This document shows, one piece after another, positions 11,721 through 61,470 of a stretch of DNA of 64,000 bases (position 1 is the first letter of the stretch; each line of letters starts with the position of its first letter). Both the position numbers and the translations under genes were made by a program. This stretch comes from Octopus vulgaris (Eukaryota), in assembly GCA_951406725.2 (NCBI GenBank), contig OX597828.1, positions 70,308,001 through 70,372,000 of the forward strand, in the 5' to 3' direction. The notes below the pieces were generated by a model. That model was not told the origin of the DNA and made no database searches. It saw only the letters and a program-made list of their open reading frames with translations.

Positions 11721-11795
<75 letters not shown>

Positions 11796-11800
11796 CAAAT

Positions 11801-13826
11801 AATTACAGATGTATCAAGCTCTTGGATCAGATAATGAAGATCACAGAGAGGGTCATAGGCCAACTAATTAGGGAGAGAGTAAGTTTGGATGAGATGCAGT
11901 TTGGTTTCGTGCCAGAGAAAAGCACCACTGATGCCATATTTCTGTTGAGACAGCTGCAGGAGAAATACCTAGCCAAAGATAAGCCCCTGTACCTGGCTTT
12001 CGTTGACATGGAGAAAGCCTTTGACAGGGTCCCCCCCGATCCCTTATCTGGTGGTCAATGAGGAAACTAGGGATAGATGAATGGTTAGTGAGAGCCGTGC
12101 AAGCCATGTACAGGGACAGTGTCAGTAAAGTGAGGGTTAGCAACGAGTACAGTGAAGAATTCCGGGTAGAGGTAGGGGTCCACCAAGGTTCAGCCCCCTC
12201 CTATTTATCATAGTCCTCCAGGCAATAATGGAGGAATTCAAGACAGGATGCTGATGACCTTGCTCTAATTGCTGAGTCACTAACAGAACTAGAGAAGTTT
12301 CAAGTGTGGAAACAAAGATTAGAATCGAAGGGCCTTAGAGTCAACGTAGCTAAAACCAAAGTCCTAATAAGTAGGAAGGCAAGCAAACCACAAATTCCTT
12401 CAGGTAGATGGCCCTGCTCGATCTGTAGAAAAGGCACAGGTAGATTCTCTATAAGATGTACCCATTGTAAGCTATGGCCACATAAGAGGTGCAGCAATAT
12501 CAAAGGAAGGCTAAATGGGAGGATAGTTTTCGTATGTGGCAGATGCTCGGGAGCTATGAATAACACTAAAAATGTGCAGAGAACAACTTCTGCCACATTC
12601 CAGGGAGAAAAACTAGAAGTAGTTGATAGCTTCTGTTACCTAGGTGACCAAGTCAGTAGCAGGGGAGGGTGCACTGAAAGTGTAGCTGCAAGAATAAGAA
12701 TAGCCTGGGCAAAGTTCAGGGAGCTCTTACTTCTGCTGGTGACAAAGGGCCTCTCGCTTAGAGTAAAAGGTAGACTGTATGATGCAAGTGTACGAACAGC
12801 CATGCTACATGGCAGTAAAACATGGGCCGTGACTGCTGAGGATATGCGTAAGCTCACAAGGAATGAAGCCAGCATGCTCCAATGGATGTGTAATGTCAGT
12901 GTGCATACTCGACAGAGTGTTAGTGGCCTGAGAGAAAGGTTGGACCTAAGAAGCATCAGATGTGGTGTGCAAGAGAGACGACTGTGCTGGTATGGCCATG
13001 TGGTGAGAATGGATGTGATAGCTGTGTGAAAAAGTGCCACACCCTAGCAGTTGAGGGAACCTGTGGAAGAGGTAGACCCAGGAAGACCTGGGATGAGGTG
13101 GTGAAACATGACCTTCAAACATTGGGCCTCACCAAGGCAATGACTAGTGACTGGGACCTCTAGAAATATGCTGTGCTTGAGAAGACTCAGCAAGCGCAAG
13201 TGTGACCATAACCTTGTGGCCTATGCTAGGGGTGTAACCAGTCCACTTATACATGCCTTTTCTTCATTGGACACTAAACTCTACTTGCGAAGACCAGTTG
13301 AGGCAAGTGAAATTGAAATCGAAATCAAACTCGATTGCAAAGACCTGTTGAGGAACATGAAATCAATCAAACTCGGTGACTGGCATCCGTTGCTAGTGGA
13401 GCGCTAAGAGTACCATACAAGTGAGATCGTTGCCAGAGCAACAAGCTGGCCTTCCTGCCGATGGCTTGTTAAACACACCATTCGAGTGTGATCGTTACCA
13501 CGTCGCCTTACTAGCACTTGTGCTGGTGTTACATGAAACATTCAAGTGAGGTCATCACCAGTGCCGCTGGACTGGCTCCTGTGCAAGTGGCACATAAAAT
13601 GCACTATTTGGGCATGGCCATTGCCGGTACCACCAAACTGGCCCTCGTGCCGGTAGCATGTAAAAGCACCCACTACACTCTCAGAGTGGTTGGCGTTAAG
13701 AAGGGCATCCAGCTGTAGAAACTCTGCCAGATCAGATTGGAATCTGGTTCACCTGACCTCAGTCAAATCGTCCAACCCATGCTAGCATGGAAAGCAGACA
13801 TTAAATGATGATGATGATGATGATGA
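11801..13826 (+). mobile_element. RTE-clade LINE, 5'-truncated and frameshifted (RT domain, PHD-like Cys cluster, 3'UTR, (GAT)n tail)
   Basis: QFGFVPEKSTTDAIF...FVDMEKAFDRVP, YLG motif, C-x2-C...C-x2-C-x4-H-x2-C, RGRPRKTW; inserted in the microsatellite of a minus-strand SINE. Confidence 0.9.
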
Positions 13827-27499: not shown

Positions 27500-27980
27500 T
27501 ATGAGGATGAGTCAAAAAGTAATGCCATTTTGTTTAGGACAGGTATAATTACCAACATAGTCACCATTTCTCTCAATAGCAATGTTCCACCTTCGAATTA
27601 GAGCATGTATCCTTGCTCTGTAAAATTCTGTTGTCTGTTCTTTGAGCCACTTCTTCACTACCTCCACACTCACCAGATTTAGCGCCTTTTTCGGTACCAC
27701 GAAAGAGGGCTTGAGAGGTAAACATCATTCCAGTGATGAGGAAATGAAAACTGTAGTGAAGAAGTGGCTCAAAGAACAGTCAACAGAATTTTACGGGGCA
27801 GGGATACATGCTCTCATTCAAAGGTGGAACATTGCTATTGAGAGAAACAGTGACTATGTTGAGAAGTAGGGATGTGATCCACAGAGGACCAGCTTCATTT
27901 TGATGTATGATACATGTTCCAGTGTTGGTAATTATACCTGTCCTAAACAAAATAGCATAACTTTTTGACTCACCCTCATA
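27500..27980. mobile_element. Mariner-derived foldback element
   Basis: TA-flanked ~58-bp TIRs; internal mariner transposase C-terminus (GIHALIQRWNIAIERNSDYVEK) present on both strands. Confidence 0.88.
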
Positions 27981-29330: not shown

Positions 29331-29370
29331 ATGATGACCTCATTCTAGAGCAAGCCTGTTCCTTTTTAAG

Positions 29371-32360
29371 GTGCAACATCTACGAGGTCCAGAAGTGACT
29401 CAGAATGTTCCGATCCTGTGTCCGAAGTTGACTGGGAAGAAATGACAATGAGTAAATACCACTCTGAAGTGACCAGTCCAGATGGAAGTAGTGCTGAAGA
29501 TGAAGAGGATGAGGACTACGATAGGGAAGGAATCATTAGCGGTAAACCTCTCCGTAGAAAACACCGACCGAGATTTCTCAATATTAGCCGTTCTCTTAGT
29601 GTGACATCTTCTGATGATGAGGTGGATGAGAAGAGCTACAAATTAGCTCAGTTAGAACATGTTAAACATGTGTCTGCCAGTGAAAAGTCTTCTGAAAAGA
29701 TCAACAGCAATAATAAAAGTGATTCAGACGGCAGTCTGAAAGAGGGGAGGGGATCGGATGGTATAGCATACCATGCCGAGTCTGTGAAAGGTCAACTGGT
29801 GCAAGAACAACAACATCAGCAGTCTATGGACTTTTTAAGTGATGGAAAAGCTGTCCGCAGTCCCAGTCCACCCAGAAGTCCGAGCTGGCGAGAAGGTCTT
29901 GACAGTCCCCCCTTTTCCCCACGTAGAAGGGATTCATATCCGGCTAAGAAACGCGGACATATTTCCCCTTTATCACCAAAAGATAAAAAATTCCAGTTTT
30001 CATATGTCGACACATCTCCGACAAAACGCCATCTATCTACTGAAGACTTATATGACAGCAACCACCAAAGTGAGATTTCACCTTCAAGATCTCCACTTAC
30101 TCCTGAAGAACTGAAGAAAGCATTTGGTGCTGTATGTGGCCAGAGCACACAGAAAGAAAGCTCTAGCTCTGATAGTTCCAGAAAGTCAACACCATCTTCA
30201 GTATTGTCCATACCACATCATCGTGATACTAATACAAAAGACCAAAAGCCATTTGCCTTAGGTATGGACACCGAAGTCATTGATTTAGCAACTTATGCGG
30301 CAACCATTGCCAGCAACACAGCTAGCTTAACGTCCCTTAGTGCATCCCCGACTAACCTCCCAACGTCCACAATAGAAGGACCTGACAGCATTTCTCCTGA
30401 ATCGATTACGAGCACTGACAGTACGTCCCCTATATCTCCCAATTACTATGATGGTTCCCAGTCTGAAGAGGGAGACGTAGAACTAGCAGACCCTTCAACA
30501 AAATCTATTGATTATCAAGGTACTAAGAGGCAAAAACAAAGGCCACCGTCATCTGATTGGTCTCCAGTTATTGATCTGTCACCAATCATTGATGTCTCGC
30601 CTTCAGTCGAGGAGGCAGAGCAACAAGAAATGTTGGCGCAGCAGCGGGAAGTTCTTCGTAAAAGAGAATCGGATGCTGCTTCTGAGTCAGAAGAGGAGGA
30701 TGGAGAAAATTCCAGTCCAGAAAAGAAAAACTTAGACAATTATGAAATTCCTTGCTTAAAACGGTACATGAACTTCGAAGATATCAGTAAAATATGTGAA
30801 GGAAAGATTCCAGATGAGAAGAAGATTGAACGAATAAGCGACATGTTGAGTGATTTCCAAAAAATCAATCGTAATATTGATATATTAACTTATCCAATTC
30901 TGAGATCGAATGGTGATAAGGAAAATATTATAACAACAACAAGTTCTGCATCAAACCCTAGATCGGGGACGAGTGACGTTGTCACAACCCTTCCCATTGC
31001 AAGACCACCATCAGCTACATACACAATGGCACCTATCTCAACGTCAGTGACAACATCCCCTGTTACTATGACAACTGTTTCTGTATCAGAGGAAGAAAAC
31101 GATCGGATTATTCACCCATTACCATCGAGAGGGATGCGGCCAACCATATCTACGTCATCTTTGTCAGAGCTTATGGATTCTGGTGGCGAGGAATCTGAAT
31201 TAATGACTGCATGGAACTTGGCTCAGTCTAATGTCACGTCAAAGACATTACCATCTCTGCAGACATCCACATCAGTTGTTACTGCAACGTCCTTAGCCAT
31301 GTCTGCTACTGTTGTCACAAGTGCTGCCTCTAGCTGCAGCGTGTCGAGAGCAGAACAAGGTGATCGGTCAGCAACCACGAAACCAATGAAACCAGCTATT
31401 GCCCCGAAACCGACAGTAGCAGCCAAAAACATGCCTGCAGGTAAAGCAGCAGAGGTGAAACCTGCTGCTAAACCGGCACCAACTGATAACAAGCCGGAAC
31501 CACCACCTCGTGTTAGGCGGAAATTACCCGAACCAACACCTGAAATCTTGGCCACTCAAAAACCACCGAAACCTCCTAAACCAGCACGTACACCGTCGAC
31601 TTGCGTGTCGACAACACCCACCACACGAACTGCTCCTGTAAACGTCGTTCCAGGGCAGCCCACGAGGCCATTGCCTCCCCCTCCAGCCGGTAGCAAGTCT
31701 GTCAAGCTGTTAACCGAAGCATTTGAAGTGAAAACGGCTGCTCAAGCACCTCCGGAGATCAAACCCAAGCCAGCACCTGCTGCTGTCGCTGCTGCCACTG
31801 CTGCTGCAGTACCTGTCACTACTACCACCACTACTGCAGTAGCAGCAGCTGCTTCTACTACTACAACTACCACAACTACTACTACTACTACTATTAGGAC
31901 TACAACTACTGCTGCTACTGAACCCAAACCGCCAAGTCCAGCTGTGGAACCTAAACCAGCTAAAGCGCACCCTATAAAAGCAGAGCCTGAAAAGAAGAAG
32001 GCGAAGGATATAAAACCGAAACTGAGGTCCCAACAGAAGCATGGAGAGCAGTCTTATTCCCCCTCCCAGTTAAAAGTATTGGACTCTCCTGTAACACCCC
32101 CAGAGCCTTCTGTATCTGTTCTGAAACGCGAATACTCTGACAGTACATCTGTCTCTCCCTCTTCCTCTCCTGATCATGAGCTTGACGCTTACCCTTCTCC
32201 GGGGACCCCACCAGATTCTGATACATCTCCGCCAAAAGCGTTGTCCCCATCATCTCCCAAAGGGAGTACTGCAACAACAAGAACTGTGAAGCCCATAAGT
32301 TCCCAGCCAGCTACTGATCCGAAGAAACTCCGACCTGTCTCTGCTCCCAGAACAACTGTG
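29371..32360 (+). CDS. PCLO: Piccolo-like giant exon B (2990 nt)
   Basis: Acceptor cctttttaag|GT (phase 1) in frame with the 983-aa ORF; donor GTG|gtaagt (phase 0); contains DLSPIIDVSPSVEE, acidic and Pro-rich segments. Confidence 0.92.
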
Positions 32361-32445
32361 GTAAGTTAAGTTTTTGCAATAAGTTCTTCAGAATATTTGG
32401 GGAACTGAATTTGGGCAGAAGGTAGGGAGATGGGCAGATAGGTAG

Positions 32446-32924: not shown

Positions 32925-33568
32925 TATTGCCTTTGCACAGCTTCTAACGCTGGAGATGTATTACAGTGTCAGCTGTTCACTACCAGTGAACTAAGGTAAC
33001 ACTTCTTACTTTTTGAGCACCTTCCAGAATATTTAAGCGATTCCAAGCAGTGCTGTTTTCTGCAAGTGCTCCACACTTATTGCAGCCCCTATTTTTTCCA
33101 TGTACTTCTCGAAATTTTTGCTCACTGTTCCCAGGCCTCCGACAATTATTGGTACTACTACCACCTTTTTTCATCAACCATAACTGCTTAACCTCCCAAG
33201 CTAACCTGTCATATCTCTCAACTTTTCTTTCTTCCTTATCGCATACCTTGTTGTCAGCTGGGCATGCTATATCTAGGATCCAGTATAGTTTGTTTCCTTT
33301 CTCAATTAAGACCGTGTCTGGCTTCCTATTCTCTATCTCATGGTCGCACTGAATCATAAAATCCCATAGGATCTTTGCATTTCTATTTTCGATGATGACT
33401 TCAGGTTTGTGGTCGTACCAATTTTTTGCTCTGTCAAGTCCATACTTGTTGTAAAGTGTCCAATGGACAAGCCTGGCTATATTTTCATGACATCTCTTAT
33501 ATTCCTTCTGGGCTAGTGGTGTACATTGGCTGGTAATATGCCATATGGTTCCACCGTTTTGTCCACAG
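32925..33568 (-). mobile_element. R4/Dong-type RLE LINE 3' fragment
   Basis: CG...TIWHITSQC (CCHC knuckle), KILWDF, RKPD...ILDIACP...EERK endonuclease motifs; abuts a (TAA)n tract, the known Dong-type target. Confidence 0.85.
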
Positions 33569-33632
<64 letters not shown>

Positions 33633-35644
33633 GCTGTTGTTCTTTTACCCTTTCAGGGATCAATAAAATAAAGTTCCAGTCAAGGACTGAGGTTGATTTC
33701 CTCAATTACCCCCACCCCATCCCACCTCCAACCAGCCAACCAGTTTCAGGCCTTGTGCCTATTTTAGAAACCATTGAGGTAGCAAATGGTTGAATCATTA
33801 GCATACCAGATGCTTAGCAGCATTTCTTCTAGCTTTACATTCTGAGTTCCAATTCCTCTGAGGTCGACTTTGCCTTTCATATTTTGAGGTCGATAAGATA
33901 AGCACCAATTGAGTTTTGGTGACAATGTAATCCACTGTAATCCATTCCTAAAATTTCAGGTCTCTTCCCAAAGTAGGAAGAATTTTCCCCTCCACCTATT
34001 TGCACACAATATGCCCTTGTTAAATCCCTTCCTCCCACCTCTAGCTCCCACTCTCCTCCTGAAATCTTGTGAACTTACCCTCATCAATCTCTGATCCACT
34101 TCATTTTATGCACCACCCTGTAACTTGGGTGTACGGCCCTTGCCCCCTCTCTGTCATGTCTTCACCATCATTCCATTGTCTCTCTTCTCCATCTGAGGAA
34201 GCCATGTCTCGCTTCTAATGTAAGACTCCTTTCTGTTCCCTCAGTATTACTCCCCCCAGTTGTGGGGGTCTTGTCCTGCAAGTTATTTGGCAACCCTCAC
34301 TGCTGTTGGTGCCACATGAAAAGCACCCATTACACTCTTGGAGTGGCTGGCACTAGGGAGGGCCATCCAGCCATAGAAACCATGCCAAAACAGATAGTAG
34401 AGCTTGCTGTAGTCTTCTGATTTGCCTGTTCTTGTCAAACCATCCAACCCATACCAGCATGGAAAATTAGACGTAAATTGATGATGATGAGGATGACGAC
34501 AATGATGATGAAATATTACTATTGTTGTTGTTGTTAGCAGAGTTCTGTTGGCAAAGACTGGATCTTTGAATTAGTTCCTGCCATTTACCTTTTTGTTAAA
34601 ACATTTATTAATCTTCTTGGGATACTCTTTGACCTCTCATTAGTTTGTTTCAAGTGAAAAAAAAAAGAAAAAGAACAGGAAATGGTTTTCTTTTTAATCT
34701 CGAAACATAAAGAAGACATAATTTTCAAGTGTGAGGAACGAACTGTGTCAATAAGTCAACTTCTGTTTGATCTGCTACAATAAAGAACACGGAAATCTAT
34801 TTGAGATTTTTTGATAAAAAGATATTTATTTTTATTGTAAACAAAAAAATGTTGTTATTACAAATATCAACAAGCACCAAGATATTTTCAAAGCTTATTG
34901 TTCTTGGCTTATGTACATTAGTAGTAACTGTTGTGAGTTTCTTGGTGTTAGCTGATCATTGTGTGTTGCTGCCACTGTTCGTCCATTGTTATTGTGCAGA
35001 GACAGTACTCTGGTTCTGCTACTCTCTGCTGACTGCCATTTTCACCGCCCGGTCTGATTTCTGCCATCTAGTGGTAGTGGCTAAAATGCACTGACTATAT
35101 AGTGGGGGTCTTACTCAGAAAAATGTGCACCAATGATGAAATTGTTAGTTCTGATTACAAATGAAGTCTTGAAGGGTCAGAATTTTTAATGACATTGGTA
35201 ATATTCTAGAAATCGCAATCATATTCTTGGGTTACTTTTCTCGCACTGGATACAGTCATCTGGATTCAGTTGCTAAATCTTCCTGCTACAGATCCCTAAT
35301 CATTTTCAGTTCCATCTCCAATCATCTTCAGTTTGATATCTAATCATCTTCAGGTGTCTTAGTTGCTGGATGGGATCAGACTGGATTAAAATTAAGAATT
35401 TTTATTTCAAAAATAAGATTTAAATCGTTCTTGTTCATCAGTGACCTAGAGCAGATAATAATAATAAGGCAGTTTAGAAATGAAAGTTTTAAAAGTTTGC
35501 AGTTCAACTCCTACTTGGTAAGAAATATTGTTTTAAGAACCTTCTTTCTGGAAAGAAAAAATATTTTCTGATCTCATCTTATTCAAAAAACACTTTGTAA
35601 ATAATCTCTCTTTCCATACACAAACATCTCTCTCTCTCTCTTTG

Positions 35645-42226: not shown

Positions 42227-42834
42227 GGTTTGACTGAGGGCTGGCAAGCCATAAGGCTGTACCAGGCCCCAATCCGATCTGACAAAATTTCTACAGCTGG
42301 ATGCCCTTCCTAACGCCGACCACTCTGTGAGTGTAGTGGGTGCTTTTTACGTGTCACTGGCACGGGAGCCAGCCAGGTGGCACTGGCAGGAGTTCTTTTC
42401 CCAGTGGACTCCTTGGATTCTTTTTTTTTACTCTGCTGGACCCTCATAGCCATTTAATGATTAAATAATTCTGTTGTATTTTTATAATGAAATATTTTTA
42501 GGAATTGTATAAAAAAATATTATTCTTTTACTTTTTTATTAGTTTCAGCCATTTGACTGAGGCCATGCTGGAGTACTGCCTTGAAGGGTTTTAGTCAAAC
42601 AATTGAACCCAGGACTTATTCTTTTTTTAAGCCTAGTACTTATCTTATCGGTCTCTTTTGCTGAACTGCTAAGTTACACGGACATAAATACATCAACAAT
42701 GGTTGTCAAGTGGTGATGGGGAACAAACACTGACACAAAGACACACACACACACATACATATATGTATATATATATATATATATATATTAATATATATAT
42801 GCATAAATCGATCAATGGAAATTGCAGATGTGTT

Positions 42835-43222
42835 ACCAGTGCCAGTGGCATGTAAGAGAACCTTCCGTTTCGCGACCGTTGCCAGTGCCGCTCCGACTGG
42901 CATCGTGCCAGTGGCACGTAAAAAGCACCATCCGTTCGTGTCCGTTGCCAGCCTCACCTGGCCCTCGTGCCGGTGGCACATAAAAAGCACCATCCGCTCG
43001 TGGCCGTTTGCCAGCTCTGTCTGGCACCTGTGCGGGTGGCACGTAAAAAGCACCCACTACACTCACGGAGTGGTTGGCGTTAGGAAGGGCATCCAGCCGT
43101 AGAAACACTGCCAGATTTGACTGGGCCTGATGAAGCCTTCTGGCTTCACAGACCCCAGTAGAACCGTCCAACCCATGCTAGCATGGAAAACGAACGCTAA
43201 ACGATGATGATGATGATGATGA
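42835..43222 (+). mobile_element. RTE 3'UTR-only insertion (related copies: + ~9975-10120, ~34310-34510; - ~41940-42390, ~48340-48480, ~51260-51460, ~54030-54195, ~61950-62300)
   Basis: Shared core cccactacactc...ggcgttaggaagggcatccagc...catgctagcatggaaa and (GAT)n tail. Confidence 0.8.
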
Positions 43223-43603: not shown

Positions 43604-45391
43604 GTGGCAGTTCTCGGAATGGGAAACCAACAGAAAGTGGTGCAACCGGTAAAATTGCCGCTTCATCTCATGCAAAACAAGGTTACGTACCTGACCAACC
43701 ACCAAGGAGTGATGCTGAGGAGATAAACATTTTGTTCAGTGAGAGGAAAATGATGAATCCCGAAGACAATATCAGACAGTATAGATCTGCAAGCTTTTCT
43801 GAATATCAGAGGCTGACTTCAAAACGGTCGGAACTGCATGGAGCCAGCACAACTCTGTTGCATGAGGAATTCTCACAAGACGAGAATGACCAAATCATAG
43901 ATTCATTGGTCAGCATTTATGGAATTCCAATTAGTACTGCAATGAAGTCATTAAAAAGAAGACTTCAAGACGAGTTGCGAAAAGTTACGGAGAGTCGGAG
44001 GCGTAAGATAGAAGAACTTGAGGAAATCCACGCACTTGAGCAACAAATCGAAGAATTAAAACTGGAATCAAAATCGGATTCTAAAGCTGCTTCATTTCTT
44101 CCAAATGGTCACAAGTCTCGATCCCTTCCAAGAAATGGCCGTGGCTTGGTGACGTCATCTTCATTCGATAAATCTACTGCAGTGCGTTCTTCTCCACAAA
44201 TCATACCCAGACGTTCACGTCATCGGCGACAGGCATCAGATCCAATGATAGCAAAGTTTTCTCCTATCAAGGAAGACAAAGACATTGAAGCTGATTTTCA
44301 AGCTAAAGCTAGTGAGGCTTACGATGGTAAGTTCTCAAAGTATTCCACCGATGACAGTTCCCAGTCAGGACTCAGTGATACGGAAAGCACTCGATCCGAG
44401 CCGACTGGAGAATCTTTGAACTCTGCCTACAAGAAGATCAAGCCTTCAGCTTACGCCAAAATGTTTTACACTGGTCGAGCCCAGTCCACTGAACGAATTC
44501 ACTCTTCAGACAGTGCACAGTACTTGTCATCCTCTGCTCCTTTGTCAAGCAGCCAATCAGAGTCGTTCCTTTCTGAAGGCTATGCTGGACATTCGAGAAC
44601 ACCCACTTACTTCTCAGATGATGAAGAGAAGCGAACTAAGGAGGAAAAAAGACAGATATTACAGTATGAAATAGAAAAGAGAAAGAAACAGCTTGAAGAG
44701 ACTGCACGCTTGCAGCACGAACTTATTCGACTTTCTCGTGCTCGACAAGCTGTGGCCCACAGCTATGATGATATCCCCAGACGTTATGCCTATTCCACTA
44801 GTCCCAGACATGTACCGACTGGCATCATTAAGCCCTTGGATGACGAACTACCCTATCAATTAGAACGCTACGTACAGAGCAGTCACGACATACATAAATC
44901 CGATAGTATGGACGCTAAACGAGCCCAGGAACTCGCTCAAGCTCAAGCTAACTACAGCTCCACCGAATATCTAGCTCACAAACAAGAGCTTGCTCGGCGC
45001 CAGTTGTATGACGATTACTCCACTTATGGTTCGTACCCACCTTACGATGCAGGCTTAGGACAATCTCAGGTTTACCCTTCATCTCCAAACCTGATGAACC
45101 GCAGTGACTCTGGTCCTGTTATCATTCAATCAATGCCCCCCACTTTACCGTCATCTGGAATCTCTGGTAGTGTCACTCTACCAGAAATCAACAGGTCAGA
45201 CATGGATATTATGCCTTCCAGAGACCTACATCAACATCAGTTCTCCTCAGATACAGATAACAGCCCAGCAAGTGATTACACACCTGCTATGCCGCTGTTG
45301 GATGATATCACCACCAGATCACGTAAGATCCTACATGATATTGGTAACCGACCCCTGTCTGCTGAGTTTAACTTGCCTGGAGGTGTTGATG
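43604..45391 (+). CDS. PCLO: Piccolo-like large exon D (1788 nt; two coiled coils)
   Basis: Acceptor ttccaccag|GT (phase 1) within the 638-aa ORF; donor ATG|gtgagt (phase 1); coiled-coil segments LKRRLQDELRKVTESRRRKIEELEE and EEKRQILQYEIEKRKKQLEE. Confidence 0.92.
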
Positions 45392-45969
45392 GTGAGTGCA
45401 ACTTTCTTATACACAACTTAATCATTAGTTTTTAATTGACAATGCATAATTAATCATCCTTATTTGTTTTAACATCTACTTTTCCTTACTTGCTTATGTC
45501 AAATGAGACTTTGCTGAGGCAGTGTCTTCGCTGGTTCAATTCTCTCCTTGATGCTGATCCTCACCTGTTTCCAAGCAGTTTAATTATTTCCTTTGTCTGT
45601 TGAATAATGAGCAGCCCTGCATGCTTTTGCAGGGGCCTGCTAACAAACGACACCCCTCTCACCCTGCCAACTACTGTCCTATTGCACTCATTTACATATA
45701 CCCCTTCCCACACACACACACACACACACATATGTATATTTTGTATAAAAAGAACATAAATGGGGTTTTTATACCTACCCCACACCTAGAACCTACCCTG
45801 TGCCAGATCTACAGTTTAAACTGGTTTTGCTATTTACATATCTGCAACATGCTACCAACACATGATACTTCGTGGTTGTCTTACCTCACTGTGAACCCTA
45901 TGTTATGGTACCTAGCCAGTTCTGGCATCCTGCGTGTTGATGTGCCTGGATTCTAATGAACCTGTAACT

Positions 45970-46417: not shown

Positions 46418-46539
46418 ATTTAATGAATGCCATGTACCGAGTGGAAAGTGACAATAGTGTCGATGCTGATGAACCAATCATGAAACATATGACAGAAGGA
46501 GGTGTCACCATTTTGAAACAGCTGGAACGGAAGAAACAG
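46418..46539 (+). CDS. PCLO: Piccolo-like exon E (DLMNAMY...LERKKQ)
   Basis: Acceptor ttttgtgtag|AT (phase 1), donor CAG|gtacat (phase 0). Confidence 0.85.
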
Positions 46540-48850: not shown

Positions 48851-48935
48851 CCAGCACCAACACAACCTAAACGGTACCCATTCATCACAAAAAGAATCTT
48901 ACTTACAAGAGATCCAAAGGACAAGTCAATCAAAG
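48851..48935 (+). CDS. PCLO: Piccolo-like exon F, PDZ N-terminal strand (PAPTQPKRYPFITKRILLTRDPKDKSIK)
   Basis: Acceptor ttctgttacag|CCA (phase 0), donor AAG|gtttgt (phase 1); Piccolo/RIM-type PDZ start. Confidence 0.88.
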
Positions 48936-49296
48936 GTTTGTAACTATGGTTAATATATACATGTGTGTTACTGTTTTTGACCCCGGGGAAGGGGCTGTGC
49001 CCGTAGCTTCTTCAAGCCCCACCAAAACCGAACAGCTGCATGTTGATGGCCACAGGGGCAAAACATGAAGGGGGAAAGAATCGGGAGGGAGGATGTTGTG
49101 GGAGCGCAGAAGGACTGGGGAAATGGATAATGGTGGTGATGGTGGAAGAGTAGAGACATTATGGGTGAAGTGAAGAGGAGGGATGAATGCATTAGTAGGT
49201 CCTGAAAAATGGTCATCATTGCTCCCCTTTCTCTTCGGACTAACAACTAACCCACCAGCCCATATATATATATATATATACATTTATTATATATAT

Positions 49297-49560
49297 TATT
49301 CAATGTACACAATATAAAGATACAAGCTATTTCTTGGTGTGAAGACACATGTCTTGGTCAGTTTTTATGATATACCTTGTGTCTCCAAGCAATCTTTGGA
49401 CTCCAAGACACAAGGCATGTTATAAGAACTTACCAAGACACGTGTCTCCATAGCAAGAAACTATTAGTGGCTTGTGTCTTTATATTCTGTACACTAAATG
49501 ATATTTATTTCTCACTTGATGGGGTATTTTAGTAATTAATGGAACAGTAAACTATATATA
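49297..49560. mobile_element. Palindromic MITE-like repeat (half copy at ~22200-22370)
   Basis: tgtacacaatataaagatacaagc ... gcttgtgtctttatattctgtaca inverted arms; both copies end aatggaacagtaaac(TA)n. Confidence 0.6.
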
Positions 49561-50909
49561 TATATAATTAATCAAAGGACATACTAAGTATGTTTACCTG
49601 CTGGAAATAACAGTCAAAACTCTTATTTTCTTGTCACTTCAGTCCACACAGCTGGCAAAAGTGAGTTGTACCTGTAATTCAAAGGGGGAGGGGGCAGCCT
49701 TGTCACATTCTGTATCATGCTGAATCTCCCTGAGAATTATGTCAAGGATACATGTGTCTGCGGAGTACTCGGCCACGTGCAAGATAATTTCACAAACAGG
49801 CTGTTCATTTGATCAGACCAACTGAAACACTTGTGGTAACTGATGGAATGGCAGTTATCATAAAACCGTTTATTGTCATAATAATGTGCTCATCCATGGA
49901 ACACTTGTTCATTCTCTGCCTCGTGACTCCACTGAAGAAAGGGATCACCAACTCTCATCAAAATATGATGAACATCATCATCTTTATCATCTTTTACATC
50001 ATCATCATCATCTTTTTTATCATCATCATCATTATCTTCATGATCTTTTCCATCATCATCATTGTCATCTTCCTCGTCTTTTTCATCATCATGTTCATCA
50101 TCTTCATCATTATCATCATCATCTTTATAATTATCATCATCATCATTGTCATCGTCATCATCATTTTCATCATCATCATCATCCTCGTCTTTTTTCATCA
50201 TCATCATCTTCATAATCATCATCATCTTCATCATCTTTTTAATCATCATCATCATCATTTTCTTTTCATCCTATTTTGATGAGGGTTGGTGGCCCACTTC
50301 TTCTTCAGTACAGTACCCCGGCATGTGGACTCTTAAACATGATTCTGCTTGTATAAAAAAAAAGTAAATAACTATGGCACAATTATATCAGCTCATTAGG
50401 CTGGGGTCTCCCTGGGTTTCCATCATCCATAACTGACCAACAGTGTGCAATTCACCCTCATGCCACACCACGAAAAGGATGCCATTCCATTACAGAGTGA
50501 ACCTGCAGGGGGTTAGGCCACATACCTTCAGACACTGTGTACTCCATGACATTTGCTACATGCACAGACGTATAACATATTATTGTAGACAAACACACAC
50601 ACACATAATATACTTGCAACATTAACAGAGTGTTGAAGTTCTTAAACTCAGTCACCCTTATCTCCCAGAAAAGAGTGTGTGTGCGTGTGTGTGTGTGTGT
50701 GTTGGTGGATAGGTGTTATAGAGCCATCATTTGGCTGGGGACCCAACTACTATTTGTTGGCTCAGACTAATGAACAAAGCACCAATTAGATGTTCACAAT
50801 GAAAACACTGTCACCTCCGTATCATCTCCTCACTTGAGCAACATGGAACTACTGTCATAACATAACGAGTTTCCTTATAACTGATACGTACACATGTATA
50901 TATGTGTGT

Positions 50910-51015
<106 letters not shown>

Positions 51016-51117
51016 ATGCATACATACATATAGATATATCTATATATATGTATATATTTGTTGCAAAGATCCTCATTGTTATAATTAGATATAATTTTAT
51101 ACACATGCATATATATA

Positions 51118-51178
<61 letters not shown>

Positions 51179-51464
51179 GTATATATATATGTGAGTGCGT
51201 GTGTGTGTGCATGTATGTGCACCCTGCGATATACATATATTGTCATCATCATCATCACCATCATCATTTAACGTCCGCTTTCCATGCTAGCATGGGTTGG
51301 ACGATTTTGACTGAGGGTTAGTGAACCAGGTGGCTGCACCAGGCTCTAATCTAATCTGGCAGAGTTTATTACAGCTGGATGCCCTTCCGTACACCAACCA
51401 CTCCGAGAGTGTAGTGGGTGCTTTTACGTGCCACCGGCATGAGGGCCAGTCAGGCAGTACTTTA

Positions 51465-51501
<37 letters not shown>

Positions 51502-53691
51502 TATATATTATATAGATGGTTACAGATGTGTGTATACATATATATCCATCTATATATAAAAGCATAATTACACGTAGGTATCCATGTATCTATATCTATA
51601 TATGTATGTATGTATGTGTATATATATATATATGTATACATGCCCATACACGTACACACACATACACATATATCTATATATATATATGGAAATCTGTATA
51701 AACAAATATGTGTATACAGTTTACTTTACATGTCAAAAATTGAAAAAGAGATGGGATCCACTTCCCCAAATATTTTTTACCCCCCCCCCACCCCATCATA
51801 AGCATCTGGAGATGCAAAGAGGCAGAAATGATGATGTCATATCAGTAGGGTGGTCAGTTTTTACTGTCTAACAGCAGTCAACGCTGTTGCCCTTGTAGTA
51901 GTGATAGTGGTGGTGGTGGTGGTGGTTGCAGTGTGAGTAAAGTACCTAGAAAGTTCCTTCATGTAGAAAACTGTTCCCTTAATTCAATAATTTCTTCCAG
52001 GCCTCGCCCATCCTGCCTCTAACCCTTCCAAAAACAATCTTATCTTAACAAATTGCTTTGTTATTTTTCTTCACACCCTGCTCTCCCCTTTTATATTTAT
52101 TTAATTCTATTTGTTTTATTTCATTTTGTTTTTCTCTATCTTTCTCTCAGGGAATATCTGTCAAACACAAACATTCACACTTTTTTCCATCCCTGCCATG
52201 ACATCCACCCCAACCCCTAGTCCAAGCACTATCCACCACCCCAGCCTGTGCAATTAAACATAAACAGCTTATTAAGGTCTCCATCTCCCTTTGTAGAACC
52301 CTACCAACTTTCCACTGGGTCTCCAGTGAGGGTGGTTTTTAGGTAGTAGTGATGGTGGGAGGGGTGGGAACTGTGGTACTTTCAGTAGTAATGGTGGTGG
52401 TGGTGGGGGTAGTGGTGGTGGTGGTGGCGGCGGCGGCGGTGGTGAGTCATAGTGTTGCTGTCATTCAACCCCAGCTCAGTTTTGATCAAAAGTCCTATCT
52501 CCAAAAGCCATTCCAGCCATGCCCATCTTATCTAAGGCTACTTTGTCCTTTGCTTTTCTTGTTTTCTTTTCTTCAGATAACAGTGTGTAATCAGTGAGTA
52601 TTTGGTTTCTGTTTCTAGCAGTTTGGAGTGACTGCATAGAGACTCCCTGGTTGTCCCTGGAGGTAGTGGTGTTGGATAATGGTGGGCATGGGAGGAAATG
52701 GTGGTGAGAAGGGGATGGTGAGGTGGCAGGGGTATGGAAAAGTGATGGTGGTGGTGGTGGTGTTGAGAAGATGGTAGTGATGGTGATTGTGATAAAGGTT
52801 GTAGATGTGTTGATGTTGGTGGTGGTGGTGGTGGTGAAAGTGTTGTGATGGTAGTGGTGGTGGTGGTGGTGATTATGGTGAAAGTGTTGTGATGGTAGTG
52901 GTGGTGGTGGTGGTTGTGATGATGGAGGTGGTGGTGAAGTTGTTGTTGTTGTTGGTGATGGTAATGGTGGTAGAGGTGGAGGTAGTAGTGGTGATGATGG
53001 TGGTGGTGTTGAAGGTGGTGGTGGTGGTGGTGGTGGTGGTGTAGGAGATAGCAGTGTGAATTTGTCACTCGGAAGAGAGCTGTCTTTCTGTTTATTTATT
53101 TTATAATTTCTCCCCATCTCATCTCCACCACCACAACCACCGTACACCACCATTGCCAATACCATGCACCAATACACCACCACCACCACCACCAGAATCT
53201 CTTCCTCCTCTTCCCCCTCCCCATGGTATGGGACAAAGGGAGATGAATAAAAAAAATGGGGTGCAAATTACAGTTTATTTTCTCTTATTTTGTTTCCACA
53301 ATTTCATGTCTGTGTGTGGTGGGGGTGGTGGTCTTTGCTTTCTGGTTTTTTTTTTTTTTTTTGTATTTCTATTTATTTTATTTCATTGTTTTTCTTTTGT
53401 TATTTCCCACTCTCCGAATTAAGTTTAGAAGACGGATAAAAGACAGGAATGTTCCCAAGAGACCTGGGAACTGATTCTCTTTTTAACAAACAACTAACTC
53501 AAATGTCCTTTCTTTCGATTCGAAGACACCCACAAGAATTGTCTACAGCAGAGTTAAACTTGGCAATATTTGAACTAGAGGTGATGCAGTGGCTTTTATC
53601 CATTTGCTTAGTTCATCTCGAAGCAAAACCACTCCCTTCCGCAAAAACCCAACTGCAAAATTGAATGATAAATAAGTAAATAATAATAATA

Positions 53692-53743
<52 letters not shown>

Positions 53744-54255
53744 CCTTTTTGTTATAGGCGCAAGGCCTGAAATTTTGGGGGAGGAATAAGTGTGTCATTT
53801 ACATCAACCCCAATGTTTATCTGGTATTCATTTTATTGCCCCACCCCACCCCACCCCATAAAAAAAGAGAATGAAAGGCAAAGCAAGCTTTGGTGGGATT
53901 TGAACTCAGACCTTAAAGAGCCAAAAGAAATGCTATTAAAGCATTTTGCCCAATGTGCCAATGTGCCAGCTGACCACCTTTTTGATGATGATTACGATGA
54001 TGATGATGATAATAATAATAATAATCATTGTCATCATCGTTTAACGTCCGCTTTCCATGCTAGCATGGGTTGGACGAATGACTGAGGGCTGGCGAACCAG
54101 ATGGCTGCACCAGGCTTCAATCTTGATCTGGCAGAGTTTCTACAGCTGGATGCCCTTCCTAATGCCAACCACTCCAAGAGTGTAGTGGGTGCTTTCATTA
54201 TAATAATAGCAATAGATAAATAAATAAATAAATTTCTGTCGTAGTAATAATAATG

Positions 54256-54292
<37 letters not shown>

Positions 54293-54616
54293 TGATGATG
54301 ATGATGATGATAGTTAATAAATAAAATTAAAAGGATTGAAATAAAAGTGAAGCTTTTTAAATTCCCCCACCATCTAAACCAATTCTTTGTAATCCTACTC
54401 TGCCTTAACATAATTCAAAAAACCCTTAGAAATGAGAGAAGCAGGACAAATATAACTACATATATACATACATACATATATGATATATATATATGTGTGT
54501 GTGTGTATATATATATGGATATGGATATATTAAAAGAAGAGAGAGAGTTAAGCCAGGAGGGTAATTGGTGCCTTTGCTAACCAGCATCAATTGTTCTACC
54601 ACTCTGCTTTTTCTAG

Positions 54617-54652
54617 GTGGCCACAGAGATCCAAAAGATCTATCAATGAAAG
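54617..54652 (+). CDS. Candidate 36-nt cassette microexon in the PDZ loop (G-GHRDPKDLSMK)
   Basis: tgctttttctag|GT...AAAG|gtttgt; phase 1-1, open frame; duplicates the 3' end and donor of exon F. Confidence 0.75.
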
Positions 54653-57217
54653 GTTTGTGTGCTATTTTTATTTATTAATTTCTTTCCCCCCTCTCTCTCT
54701 CTCTCCCCCTCTCCAATGTTCTTGATCTATCCCCCATCATCGTCAAACCGTGAAAGTGCCGCTGTTGCTATATAGTCCCCGCCCCCTGCTAATTCCACGT
54801 CCTCTTCTTCTTCTTTGCTCTCTGCGACTGGTTTTCATAACCAGAAGCATTATACACTTTATTCTGACCAGGGCATTTTAAGAAACCCCTTAAGCCTTTT
54901 ATTACCACATTTCTCTTGAAGTACACAGTTTGTATTCATTATTTGAAAATAATAAATAATTTTTTAAAAATAATTTTGTTATTATTAAGCTGGAATTTGG
55001 AACAAACAGTGGTAGGAAATTTTGGTAGAAGGCTTTCATTAAGGTCCTTTTAAAACAGGGAGTTTGTATCAGAGAAGCAGGGGCAGTTTCAAGCAGGTTC
55101 ATATCAAATGGCTCAAAATGCAGTTAGCAGTTTTGGAGATGGTTTTCAAATGCCATATATATATGTATATATATATATGGATATAGATATATAGATATAA
55201 ATAATTATATATATATAATATAAATATAGATATAAATTTATAGATGTATGTTTTTATAATGTAAAGGAATTGGGATTTGAAATCTGGGCACTCTGATACA
55301 ACCCAGATCTGCCTAACCACATCAATTAATAAGGAACATTAAGAATCATTTCAGATAAACATTAAACTTTCTAACTTTCTGGGTGCAATCCAATGGTCAT
55401 TTATGACTGAAGGGGTTTCTATACATACATATATACATGCATGCATGCATACATATATGCATGCATACATACATGCATGCATGCATACATACATACATAC
55501 ATACATACACACATACATACATACATGCATACATACATACATACATACATACATACATACATACATACATACAACTCATGAAAGAATGTGATGTAGTAAA
55601 GCTTATCAAAATATTAAAACTCTTCCCACCTTATGTGGTCCATTCACAACAGTGCAATGTATTATTATTCTGAAGCATTTTAATAAAGCTATGGGTGTGT
55701 CCCTTCATGTTATAGAACAACTTATCAGTTAGGGTCAGGGTTATTATTGGAGGGACAACACATTGTGTGTTTGTTCTGTGATGTTTCAGTTATTCTGTGT
55801 GTGCCTGTTAACCATATCCTCTGTATGTGTGTGAGGAGTGAGGTTAGTTAGGGTTTGCTTGTATATTTTGTTTTTATAATTTCTTAATGACTTAATCAGA
55901 GGTGAGAGGGTATCATCCATGATTGGTGGAAATAAGGAAATTCATTACCCTCAAACCATAATCCAAGCTTACATCCTTGAAACAGAGGTAGAGACCAAAA
56001 AGTAGCTAAGGGAATGGTATTGATGTTAAAATGGACAATCCATTAAGTCCTATATCCCACAAACTCCATCTCTCAGATGCAATTTTTGTGGTGTAAGACT
56101 TAATCCTGTCTCCCAGACAGGCTTCCTCACAATTTCCCTCCACCAAATTATGCTTGCAATACTTTGATCAACCCAGTGCTATGACAGAAGATACTTCTCC
56201 ATTGTGCTGTGCAAAAGGATCGAACCTGAAAAGATGTATTTGGGAAGAAAAGGTCTTAAGCATGCTTTGTTGGGATGAAGAACCACCACATGACACACCC
56301 TCACCCTGCTGCCCCATATGCGACACTTCCTCACTTCCACATGCTCTACCATTCCTGCATAACATTGCTGCCCACTCAATTTGTTCCTACTACAGCATTA
56401 TGCCCTATGCATAACATGCCCTCACACTTATACGACACCCCACAACATCCCTTCACTATCACTCTGTACACCCTACAGTAACACTTTGACCCCAGGCTAC
56501 ACTAAACTATAGTAACAAAGAGAAACTGTGGAACCCCAGGCAACTTGTGATGGTATGAAGTGGTAAAGAGGAAAGTCACAAAGCAGAATAAATTATATTT
56601 CAATGTAAGGAATGAGCAAAGTGTGCGATATAGGTGCAGAGACCCTTCAGACGAAGGGCTTGGCCCTCAACATTAGATTTCTATCCCTTCTAATAGTACA
56701 ATAATCAGCTCTTATTTTGTGAATGTTTTCAACAAGACATTAGATGGTCGAGAGCATCAGGGTGTTGCTACAGAGTAAATAACTGGTCATCTCTCTCTCT
56801 CTCTTGCTGACCATATCTATTGACCACCACACTTATCAACTTGGCCCAAACCAGTACAGCATCACACTGAGCCATTTCTCTATCCTATGGAAATTTTAGC
56901 TCTCCAAGGATCGACTTAGCTTCTTCTCCCTCTGGGGTTTGATAAAATAAGTACCAGTCATAAACTGTGTGCCCCTGACCAATAGCTTTTGTCCTTTTGC
57001 CTTCATAATAAACCATTATTGGTCCCTATATCTAAGAATTGAGGATCTCATCGAGGACTTCCCTTTATACAATAGCAAATGCCTATAACAGCATACTATT
57101 ATAATCTTCCATAGATGATGCATTAAATTATTAAGGTCATCCATACTTATGTCAGCATGATATTACAGCCTCCCATACATTCAGTAATGAGTTATTAAGG
57201 TCGTCCGTCTATCTTTG

Positions 57218-57474: not shown

Positions 57475-57890
57475 TATAAGTCATCACAACAGAGAGGTCA
57501 ACATTGGGCCCTCAGTGACCGAAGCTCAGTTGGAACCCCTCACTTCATCATTGCTCTCTGCGTCTGTCAGACAAATTAAAGCTTCTCACTATTTGTGCTG
57601 CCTGCTTTCTTACCTCCTCCTCTCACTCACCCTATCATCGTCACACTCTCTTCCTCCTCCTCCTCCTCCTTCACCTCACCAACACTCTCCTCTTCCTCCA
57701 CCTCCTCCTTCCTCCCTTTACACTTATTTTTCCCTTTTACCATTTATTGTCTTCTGATATATTTTATAAGTCTTATGAATCTGTTCTTTTCTTTTTTATG
57801 TTTATGTTTGTGTGTGTGTGTGTGTGACTAATAACGTAAATACATATATACATATACATACATACGTACATATACATATATATATACATA

Positions 57891-57922
<32 letters not shown>

Positions 57923-57925
57923 CTT

Positions 57926-59085
57926 ATGGCAGTGAAACATGGGCCATGACTGCTGAGGACATGCGTAAGCTCACGAGAAATGAAGCTAGTATGCTCCGTT
58001 GGATGTGTAATGTCAGTGTTCATAGTCGACAGAGTGTAAGTACCTTGAGAGAAAAGTTGGACCTAAGAGGAATCAGATGTTGTGTGCAAGAGAGACGATT
58101 GCGCTGGTATGGTCATGTGGTGAGAATGGATGAAGATAGGTGTGTGAAAAAGTGCCACACCCTGGCAGTTGAGGGGACCTGTGAAAGAGGTAGACCCAGG
58201 AAAACCTGGGTCGAGGTGGTGAAGCACGACCTTCGAACTCTAGGTCTCACCAAGGAAATGACCAGAGACCGAGACCTATGGAAGTATGCTGTGCGTGAGA
58301 AGACCCGGCAAGACCAGTGAGAACAATTAAAATCAAATCATATATCAGAAAGCAGGGGTTAAGTGACCCATCCGTTCGTGTCCGCTGTCAGCCTCGTCTG
58401 GCACCCGTGCCGGTGATACGTAAAAGCACCATTCGCTCATGGCCGTTTGCCAGCTCTGCCTGGCCCCGTGTCGGTGGCACGTAAAAGCACCATCCGTTCG
58501 TGTTCGTTGCCAGCCTCGCCTGGCCCCATGCCGGTGACACGTAAAAGCACCGTCCGTTCGTGGCCGTTTGCCAGCTCTGTCTGGCCCCGTGTCGGTGGCA
58601 CGTAAAAGCACCATCTGTTCGTGGCCGTTTGCCAGCTCTGTCTGGCCCCGTGTCGGTGGCACGTAAAAGCACCATCCGTCCGTGTCCATTGCCAGCCTCG
58701 GCTGGCCCCCGTGCCGGTGACACGTAAAAGCACCGTCCGCTCGTGGCCATTTGCCAGCTCTGTCTGGCAACCGTGTCGGTGGCACGTAAAAGCACCATCC
58801 GTCCGTGTCCGTTGCCAGCCTCGGCTGGCCCCCGTGCCGGTGACACGTAAAAGCACCATCCGTTTGTGGCCGTTCGCCAGCTCTGTCTGGCACCTGTGCA
58901 GGTGGCACGTAAAAAACACCCACTACACTCGCGGAGTGGTTGGCGTTAGGAAGGGCATCCAGCCATAGAAACACTGCCAGATCTGACTGGGCCTGACGAA
59001 GCCTTCCAGCTTCACAGACCCCAGTTGACCCGTCCAACCCATGCTAGCATGGAAAGCGGACGCTAAACGATGATGATGATGATGA
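57926..59085 (+). mobile_element. RTE LINE 3' fragment with expanded 3'UTR minisatellite
   Basis: ORF 57946-58320 is nearly the same as 12830-13190; followed by a ~61-bp tandem array and the same terminal sequence plus (GAT)n. Confidence 0.9.
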
Positions 59086-60586: not shown

Positions 60587-60712
60587 GAAATGGAATTGGG
60601 ATGAAAATTGTTGGAGGTAAACAGCAAGGACCTGACGAAGAGATGGTGGCATATGTAGCAGCCATTTATCCTGGAGGTATTGCAGAACAGCTACATGGAG
60701 AGCTGGAAGAAG
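60587..60712 (+). CDS. PCLO: Piccolo-like exon G, PDZ core (GNGIGMKIVGGKQQGPDEEMVAYVAAIYPGGIAEQLHGELEEG); not in ORF track
   Basis: Acceptor tttgtctggcag|GA, donor AAG|gtaaga, 126 nt, phase 1-1; GIGM carboxylate-binding loop and typical PDZ betaC-alphaA pattern. Confidence 0.92.
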
Positions 60713-60846: not shown

Positions 60847-61470
60847 CATCGTTTAACGTTCGTTTTCCATGCTGGCGTGGGTTGGACAATTCGACTGAGG
60901 TCTGGGAAGCCAGGCAACTGCACCAGGCCCCAATCTGATCTGGCAGTATTTCTACAGCTGGATGCCCTTCCTAATGCCAACCATTCCGGGAGCGTAGTGG
61001 GTGCTTTTTACATGCCACTGGCACAGGGGCCAGAGGAGCTGACATTGACCACAATCGGATGGTGCTTTTTACAGGCTGCCGGCATGGAAGCCAGTCAAAG
61101 TGGCACTGGCATCGGTCACGTTCAGATGGTGCTTTTTACGTGCTCCCAGCACGGGGGTCACAACTACAATTTCCATTTGATTTGATGTTGATGTATTTGA
61201 CTCAATAGGTTTCCTCAAGCACGGTATGTTGCCCTACAATCCAAGGTGGACTGGTTATGTGACACTGGTGTAGGTTACAGCTGTGGACTCACTTTATTTG
61301 CCAGGTCTTGTCAGTCACAGCATACCTCCAGCAGTCTCAGTCTTTTGTCATTGCCTCTGTGAGGCCCAACATTCAAAGGTCATGTTTCACCACTTCATCC
61401 CATGTCTTCCTGGATCTCCTTCTACCCCAGATTGCTTCCACTGTTTGGGAGTGGCACTTCTGTACGCAGC
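60847..61470 (-). mobile_element. RTE LINE 3' fragment (antisense)
   Basis: Reverse complement of the RTE terminus (cgtttaacg...ttccatgc...gggttgga) and ORF end. Confidence 0.75.

Follow-up and report, generated by a model that had tools for sequence, protein, structure and literature searches.

Splice inserts in PDZ loops are already known, in a molluscan paralogue and at nearly the same place as the exon described here. Vertebrate Piccolo itself reportedly possesses a splice switch in its C2A domain, which Garcia et al. are said to have described in 2004 and in which a short insert is added by alternative splicing; it is alike in being a short spliced insert in a folded Piccolo domain and unlike in that the domain is C2A, not PDZ, and the protein that of a vertebrate. 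In Aplysia RIM, an optional five-residue insert before strand betaB abolished the pull-down of the CaV2 tail, and the insert is reported to show no enrichment in sensory neurons (PMC10657410). In PTP-BAS (PDZ2a/b), splicing inside the PDZ domain likewise lengthens a loop, an event that the source calls considerably less reported (PMC7094393). Exon birth by duplication is also an established process, and tandem duplicated or mutually exclusive homologous exons are exons homologous to a neighbour in the same gene (PMC9741552). The neural exons that depend on the eMIC carry a UGC near the 3' splice site and a CUAAY branch motif (PMC8797185). Here we describe exon M, a candidate splice switch in the PDZ domain of a Piccolo-type gene of the octopus, and compare it with these systems. 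The window, i.e. the whole stretch of DNA analysed, is 64 kb long, and the features of the locus are collected in Table 1.

Table 1. Exons and splice signals of the Piccolo-type gene, in window coordinates
Feature	Position	Strand	Description
Exon B (large, ~3 kb)	29372..32360	+	Same gene; boundaries approximate; ORF 29370-32369, tblastn to P0021/P0023
Exon D (large)	43604..45392	+	Piccolo-type gene; boundaries approximate, from splice motifs
Exon E	46418-46539	+	Upstream of F, its end adjoining F in all 4 contigs; molluscan relatives at 92-95% by tblastn
Exon F	48851-48935	+	85 nt, phase 0-1; encodes PDZ strand betaA and the beginning of the betaA-betaB loop; probable source of the copy
Exon M acceptor region	54577..54616	+	Branch-point-like CTAAC (-40), pyrimidine tract, TGC (-12) and AG
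Exon M	54617-54652	+	36 nt, phase 1-1; 12 additional residues; 3' 28 nt like the end of exon F
Exon M donor gtttgt	54653..54659	+	Same as exon F donor over 6 nt
Exon G	60587-60712	+	126 nt; G-N-G-I-G-M carboxylate-binding loop, betaB, betaC; joined to F in X8

Judged by sequence, the gene is a cephalopod Piccolo-type active-zone scaffold, Piccolo and RIM being the PDZ domains compared. The cuttlefish homologue is 97% identical to octopus in exon F and 89-95% in exon G, and its PDZ domain matched that of human Piccolo (1ujd) with an E-value of 4.9e-29, as against 2.5e-14 for RIM2 (1wfg, 40% identity) and 7.9e-11 for RIM1 (1zub, 35% identity). Identity as RIM was rejected on these scores, those for RIM1 and RIM2 lying far below that for Piccolo, and Foldseek with the cuttlefish PDZ placed 1ujd at rank 1 with 54% identity. 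The relatives of exon D, from molluscs and brachiopods, bear the names piccolo-like or PCLO and have FYVE_2/zf-piccolo, PDZ and C2 domains; the exons for the zinc finger and C2 are located beyond the 64 kb window, and this domain set is known from those relatives. The eight ORFs of the window that were looked up (8/8) had no exact match among proteins, and three homologue searches (at most 2000, 3000 and 4664 residues) returned no octopus protein. The exon of about 3 kb at 29370-32369 is of low complexity, rich in Ser/Thr/Pro and without a Pfam match; long disordered segments are typical of Piccolo. By inspection, introns of the gene contain broken reverse-transcriptase-like ORFs of LINE-type elements (11789-13163 and 57835-58320), and the M-G intron holds a nine-copy tandem array of a 61-bp unit (58368-58914, 82% match) beside a common interspersed repeat, with similar units near 42700-43180 and 61000-61150. 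Two further regions, 27500-27870 and 32980-33705, contain what look like pieces of a mariner-type transposase and a retroelement ORF. The identity of the gene bears on its ligands. The earlier note had suggested Ca-channel or ELKS binding on the model of RIM; because the gene is Piccolo-type and not RIM, CaV2 or ELKS ligands are unsupported. Molluscs are described as possessing RIM, Piccolo and Fife, with the CaV2-binding residues said to be kept by RIM only and the non-RIM members differing in ligand-recognition residues (PMC9282427). For the vertebrate Piccolo PDZ, a review names Epac2 as the partner (PMC4709825).

Over the last 28 nt of exon M and the donor gtttgt, 28 of 34 positions agree with the end of exon F, against a next-best match to the F end in the 64 kb window of 20 on the + strand and 21 on the - strand; the ends of exons E and G, used as controls, gave no match above 21 in the window. 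The acceptor of M reads tgctttttctag. The proposal of the earlier note that M is a copy of the F end and donor is upheld as likely, and its claim of an own branch-like motif (CTAAC at -40) and acceptor is upheld as well. A scan of the F-G intron yielded three candidate mini-exons, of which only M has a polypyrimidine acceptor, an AAG/GT donor and an open frame; the other candidates (49643/49652-49660) were unsupported by spliced contigs and were discarded. By sequence, the 36 nt in phase 1-1 are open, keep the frame and add 12 residues. The peptide of F ends in RDPKDKSIK and that of M in RDPKDLSMK, while G starts with GNGIGM, so that the register previously given as R-x9-GNGIG is corrected to R-x8-GNGIG.

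Transcript support comes from 4 of 24 listed runs, which were compared with the stretch around exon F as one contig per run; the RNA status of the runs is a guess, and all four contigs are spliced from E to F and are therefore derived from mRNA. In X6, X2 and X11, three runs of organism A from three studies, the letters 54619-54648 of M stand directly after exon F (the X6 contig is 8552 nt long, with a depth of 52.8), whereas in X8, from organism B, F is joined straight to G and M is skipped. The anticipated junction 48935-54617 is thus found in contigs of three of the four runs, and contigs exist of both forms foreseen in the earlier note, inclusion (F-M, 3/4 runs) and skipping (F-G, 1/4). 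Loose contig ends are visible to 30 letters, which covers the F-M join and leaves the M-G join beyond reach. With a single contig per run and no tissue record, the contigs give neither inclusion level nor tissue, and minor forms are hidden. We are almost certain that M is a real exon, and it is probably a cassette exon. Since F and M stand side by side in single contigs, M is a tandem insert and not a mutually exclusive exon; the latter arrangement was rejected also for the difference in format, F having 85 nt in phase 0-1 and M 36 nt in phase 1-1.

M was likely born by copying of the 3' end of F with its donor. About 31 exonic bases and 6-7 bases of the donor are alike, beyond which the match drops to background, and no derivation from F was detectable for the acceptor and first 8 nt of M, when compared with the acceptor and 5' half of F (not above shuffles). 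Duplication of the whole exon with decay of the F 5' half was considered and rejected: a 9/10 match lies upstream of M, but 209-643 of 1000 shuffles equal it over six settings. In the simplest history, a short stretch comprising the 3' end of F and its donor would have been copied 5.7 kb downstream, to a place where intronic sequence ahead of it provided a branch point and a phase 1 acceptor; with the acceptor in phase 1, inclusion keeps the reading frame. The six differences between F and M comprise two that are cleanly synonymous, three within one codon (K>L) and one I>M. The excess of pS (0.55) over pN (0.15) falls short of significance (P 0.09 for at least 3/6, 0.32 for at least 2/6), so that the coding constraint previously read from the synonymous changes is not established. 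M shares with tandem duplicated and mutually exclusive exons its homology to a neighbour in the same gene, but it differs from the duplicated exon substitutions described in that only the 3' third of F is copied, the phases differ (1-1 vs 0-1), and M, being spliced in tandem with F, inserts and does not substitute (PMC9741552). A doubled RD[PS]KD was found in none of 108 anchored Piccolo-type proteins (12 further ones were not anchored by the pattern), and a metagenome scan for the 5' part of M gave two matches, both unrelated by their flanks. A literature search gave no published report of exon M; public octopus annotations may already include the isoform, and a 20-species splicing preprint that covers Octopus bimaculoides may list it in its supplements (10.64898/2026.09.05.749416).

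The splice signals of M invite comparison with neural microexons. Among the six acceptors of the gene compared, M is the only one with CTAAY and a TGC near -12, and its previous AG lies at -34, which leaves an AG-free zone of about 30 nt, the shortest of the six. A looser limit for microexons stands at about 51 nt. M is similar to eMIC/SRRM4 microexons as these are described (PMC8797185, PMC12992808) in that it is short, preserves the frame, belongs to a synaptic gene, and has the UGC, the CUAAY motif and a non-consensus donor; it departs from them in its short AG-free zone and, at 36 nt, exceeds the limit of at most 30 nt, on which count we rejected it as a microexon in that sense (PMC12992808). 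Neural regulation of M is putative, and we consider the chances for and against it to be equal.

In the protein, the insert would enter the PDZ domain next to its ligand-binding site. In the model of the cuttlefish skipping form, betaA spans residues 39-44 and betaB 59-66, and the F/G junction sits within the betaA-betaB loop, with two residues between it and the G-I-G-M carboxylate-binding loop; the placement of the insert just ahead of this loop in the earlier note agrees with the cuttlefish model. The second register that the note saw in the repeated arginine is structurally not equivalent to the first: the second R follows G-G-H and not the betaA strand, and for this reason it cannot simply replace the first. 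We propose that betaA and the G-I-G-M loop would stay anchored while the extra 12 residues loop out beside the ligand C-terminus, and that the repeated sequence would leave native-like neighbours on both sides of the insert. M would probably be a regulated cassette whose insert leaves the fold intact and likely weakens or re-tunes the binding of C-terminal peptides. The insert would likely tune partner binding as a predicted effect; a measurable change in peptide binding is predicted with slightly less than even confidence. For the whole chain, in which an optional exon extends the loop beside the ligand C-terminus and probably reduces or alters peptide binding while the domain stays folded, our prediction is evenly poised.

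The insert in Aplysia RIM is the nearest parallel, as a short alternative segment before betaB in a molluscan RIM-superfamily PDZ domain, with both forms expressed. It differs in lying in the paralogue RIM, with five residues within the carboxylate motif as against 12 before it in octopus, and it is not described as a copy of a neighbouring exon; the loss of binding was measured there and is only predicted here (PMC10657410). As the Aplysia insert lies inside the carboxylate motif and M before it, the effect of M may be smaller. The insert of PTP-BAS, in another protein, comprises five residues in the beta2-beta3 loop and lowers peptide affinity (PMC7094393).

Relatives of the octopus gene vary at this very junction. 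Isoforms of Lingula anatina with a 13-residue insert (P0089, P0090, P0092) and without it (P0036, P0091) differ at the same PDZ loop position, the insert being unrelated in sequence to M apart from a shared G-G start. Haliotis isoforms with and without three additional residues (P0021/P0044/P0046 vs P0045) differ at the same junction, as do those of Argopecten with and without one additional residue (P0023 vs P0048-51), while in Mizuhopecten all three PDZ-bearing records carry the single residue and in heterodont clams (P0030, P0032-35) only the +3 form occurs among the records fetched. The clams show that this loop can accommodate added length. None of the inserts in these relatives is related in sequence to M. 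For some of the +3 and +1 variants a tandem acceptor is likely, and genomic ORFs P0010-P0014 run extra residues into exon G. Patella P0112 has a +3 or +1 variant at the same junction, and the hypothetical protein P0016 of Pomacea has eight extra residues there, which may be a model error. In P0127, a lancelet-like protein, the start of the exon G equivalent (G-N-G-L-G...K-E-I-P, 15 residues) is tandemly doubled, either as a gene-model artefact or as another partial exon copy. All four proteins of the cuttlefish cluster that cover the PDZ domain are without an insert, a result that does not speak for the cuttlefish genome.

This variability, with +1, +3 and +13 across lophotrochozoans in unrelated sequences, is what would be expected if M were a real alternative exon of nearly neutral effect, in a loop that tolerates length, where a native copy is the least disruptive insert and drifted to high inclusion. 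The model of the Lingula isoform with 13 additional residues at the same site points in the same direction, as it predicts an intact PDZ domain (mean pLDDT 83) that still matches 1ujd best, with the insert as a low-confidence loop (below 50 at 25-32), and so does the absence of a significant dN/dS signal. We nevertheless consider near-neutrality unlikely. Counted from the basic residue that follows betaA up to G-N, 40 of 46 animal representatives have a length of 8 (9 in three, 6 in two and 11 in one), a set drawn from 150 listed representatives as 45 single-stretch hits and P0127, with 104 multi-PDZ proteins dropped; M keeps the exact donor, CTAAC and an open frame, and is in the assembled form of three of four runs. 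Moreover, binding was altered by the Aplysia RIM insert, which occupies this loop too (PMC10657410). A stronger functional reading is that the intron ahead of the carboxylate-binding loop is a recurrent splice-switch site of RIM-superfamily PDZ domains, with optional inserts gained independently in five lineages and gating which active-zone partner is bound, and with the insert as the main octopus form in some tissues. The inserts claimed for it number 12 residues in octopus Piccolo, 13 in the brachiopod, 3 in abalone, 1 in scallops and 5 in Aplysia RIM, and we hold this reading to be doubtful.

Inclusion was seen only in the runs of organism A and skipping only in the run of organism B, with one contig each. 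The X8 contig, at a depth of 7.5, carries in addition an A>G change at window position 48934, i.e. position -2 of the exon F donor, synonymous for Lys (AAA>AAG); the G may be a SNP or the product of A-to-I editing. As the skipping contig stands under a different organism label and bears this change, skipping could represent a lineage difference, with M a constitutive, lineage-specific exon of organism A that organism B lacks or ignores, and with no switch at all. All three A runs include M and the one B run, which differs at 48934, skips it, as such a difference would have it; yet exon D hardly differs between A and B, with 0.94-1.00 of its words found in the runs of both (0.94-0.98 in B runs, a divergence of about 0.1-0.2%), while M is an old copy that has diverged from F at 6 of 27 coding bases (22%). 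Because the divergence of A and B is far below that of F and M, M is likely, by this comparison, to predate the split of the two organisms, which would favour alternative splicing over absence from B. One assembled path per run would also hide a minor skipping form in A, and A-to-I editing could account for the change at 48934, squid Piccolo being reported to have 182 recoding sites (PMC4384741). We find it improbable that M is constitutive in A, and fairly probable that M is alternatively spliced within one species. That M is instead an old microexon homologous to the Lingula insert, its 3' part overwritten by gene conversion from F, would fit the optional exon-sized insert of Lingula at the same position, the G-G with which both inserts start and the lack of F derivation in the acceptor and first 8 nt of M, but it is very improbable, as M otherwise shows no likeness to the insert of Lingula, the first G follows necessarily from the phase-1 junction, and the fetched gastropod, bivalve and cuttlefish proteins have no insert like that of Lingula, except for the eight residues in the unsupported Pomacea model.

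The birth of M by partial copying, which we regard as likely, may be datable across cephalopod genomes, as the probable parent can still be recognised 5.7 kb upstream. Splicing within PDZ domains has rarely been described (PMC7094393), and the two PDZ isoforms would form a ready pair for finding the ligands of the invertebrate Piccolo PDZ domain. Aplysia and Octopus are described as having similar sets of synaptic scaffold genes, and alternative transcripts have been raised as a source of diversity (PMC9282427); exon M is a concrete candidate for such scaffold diversity by alternative transcripts.
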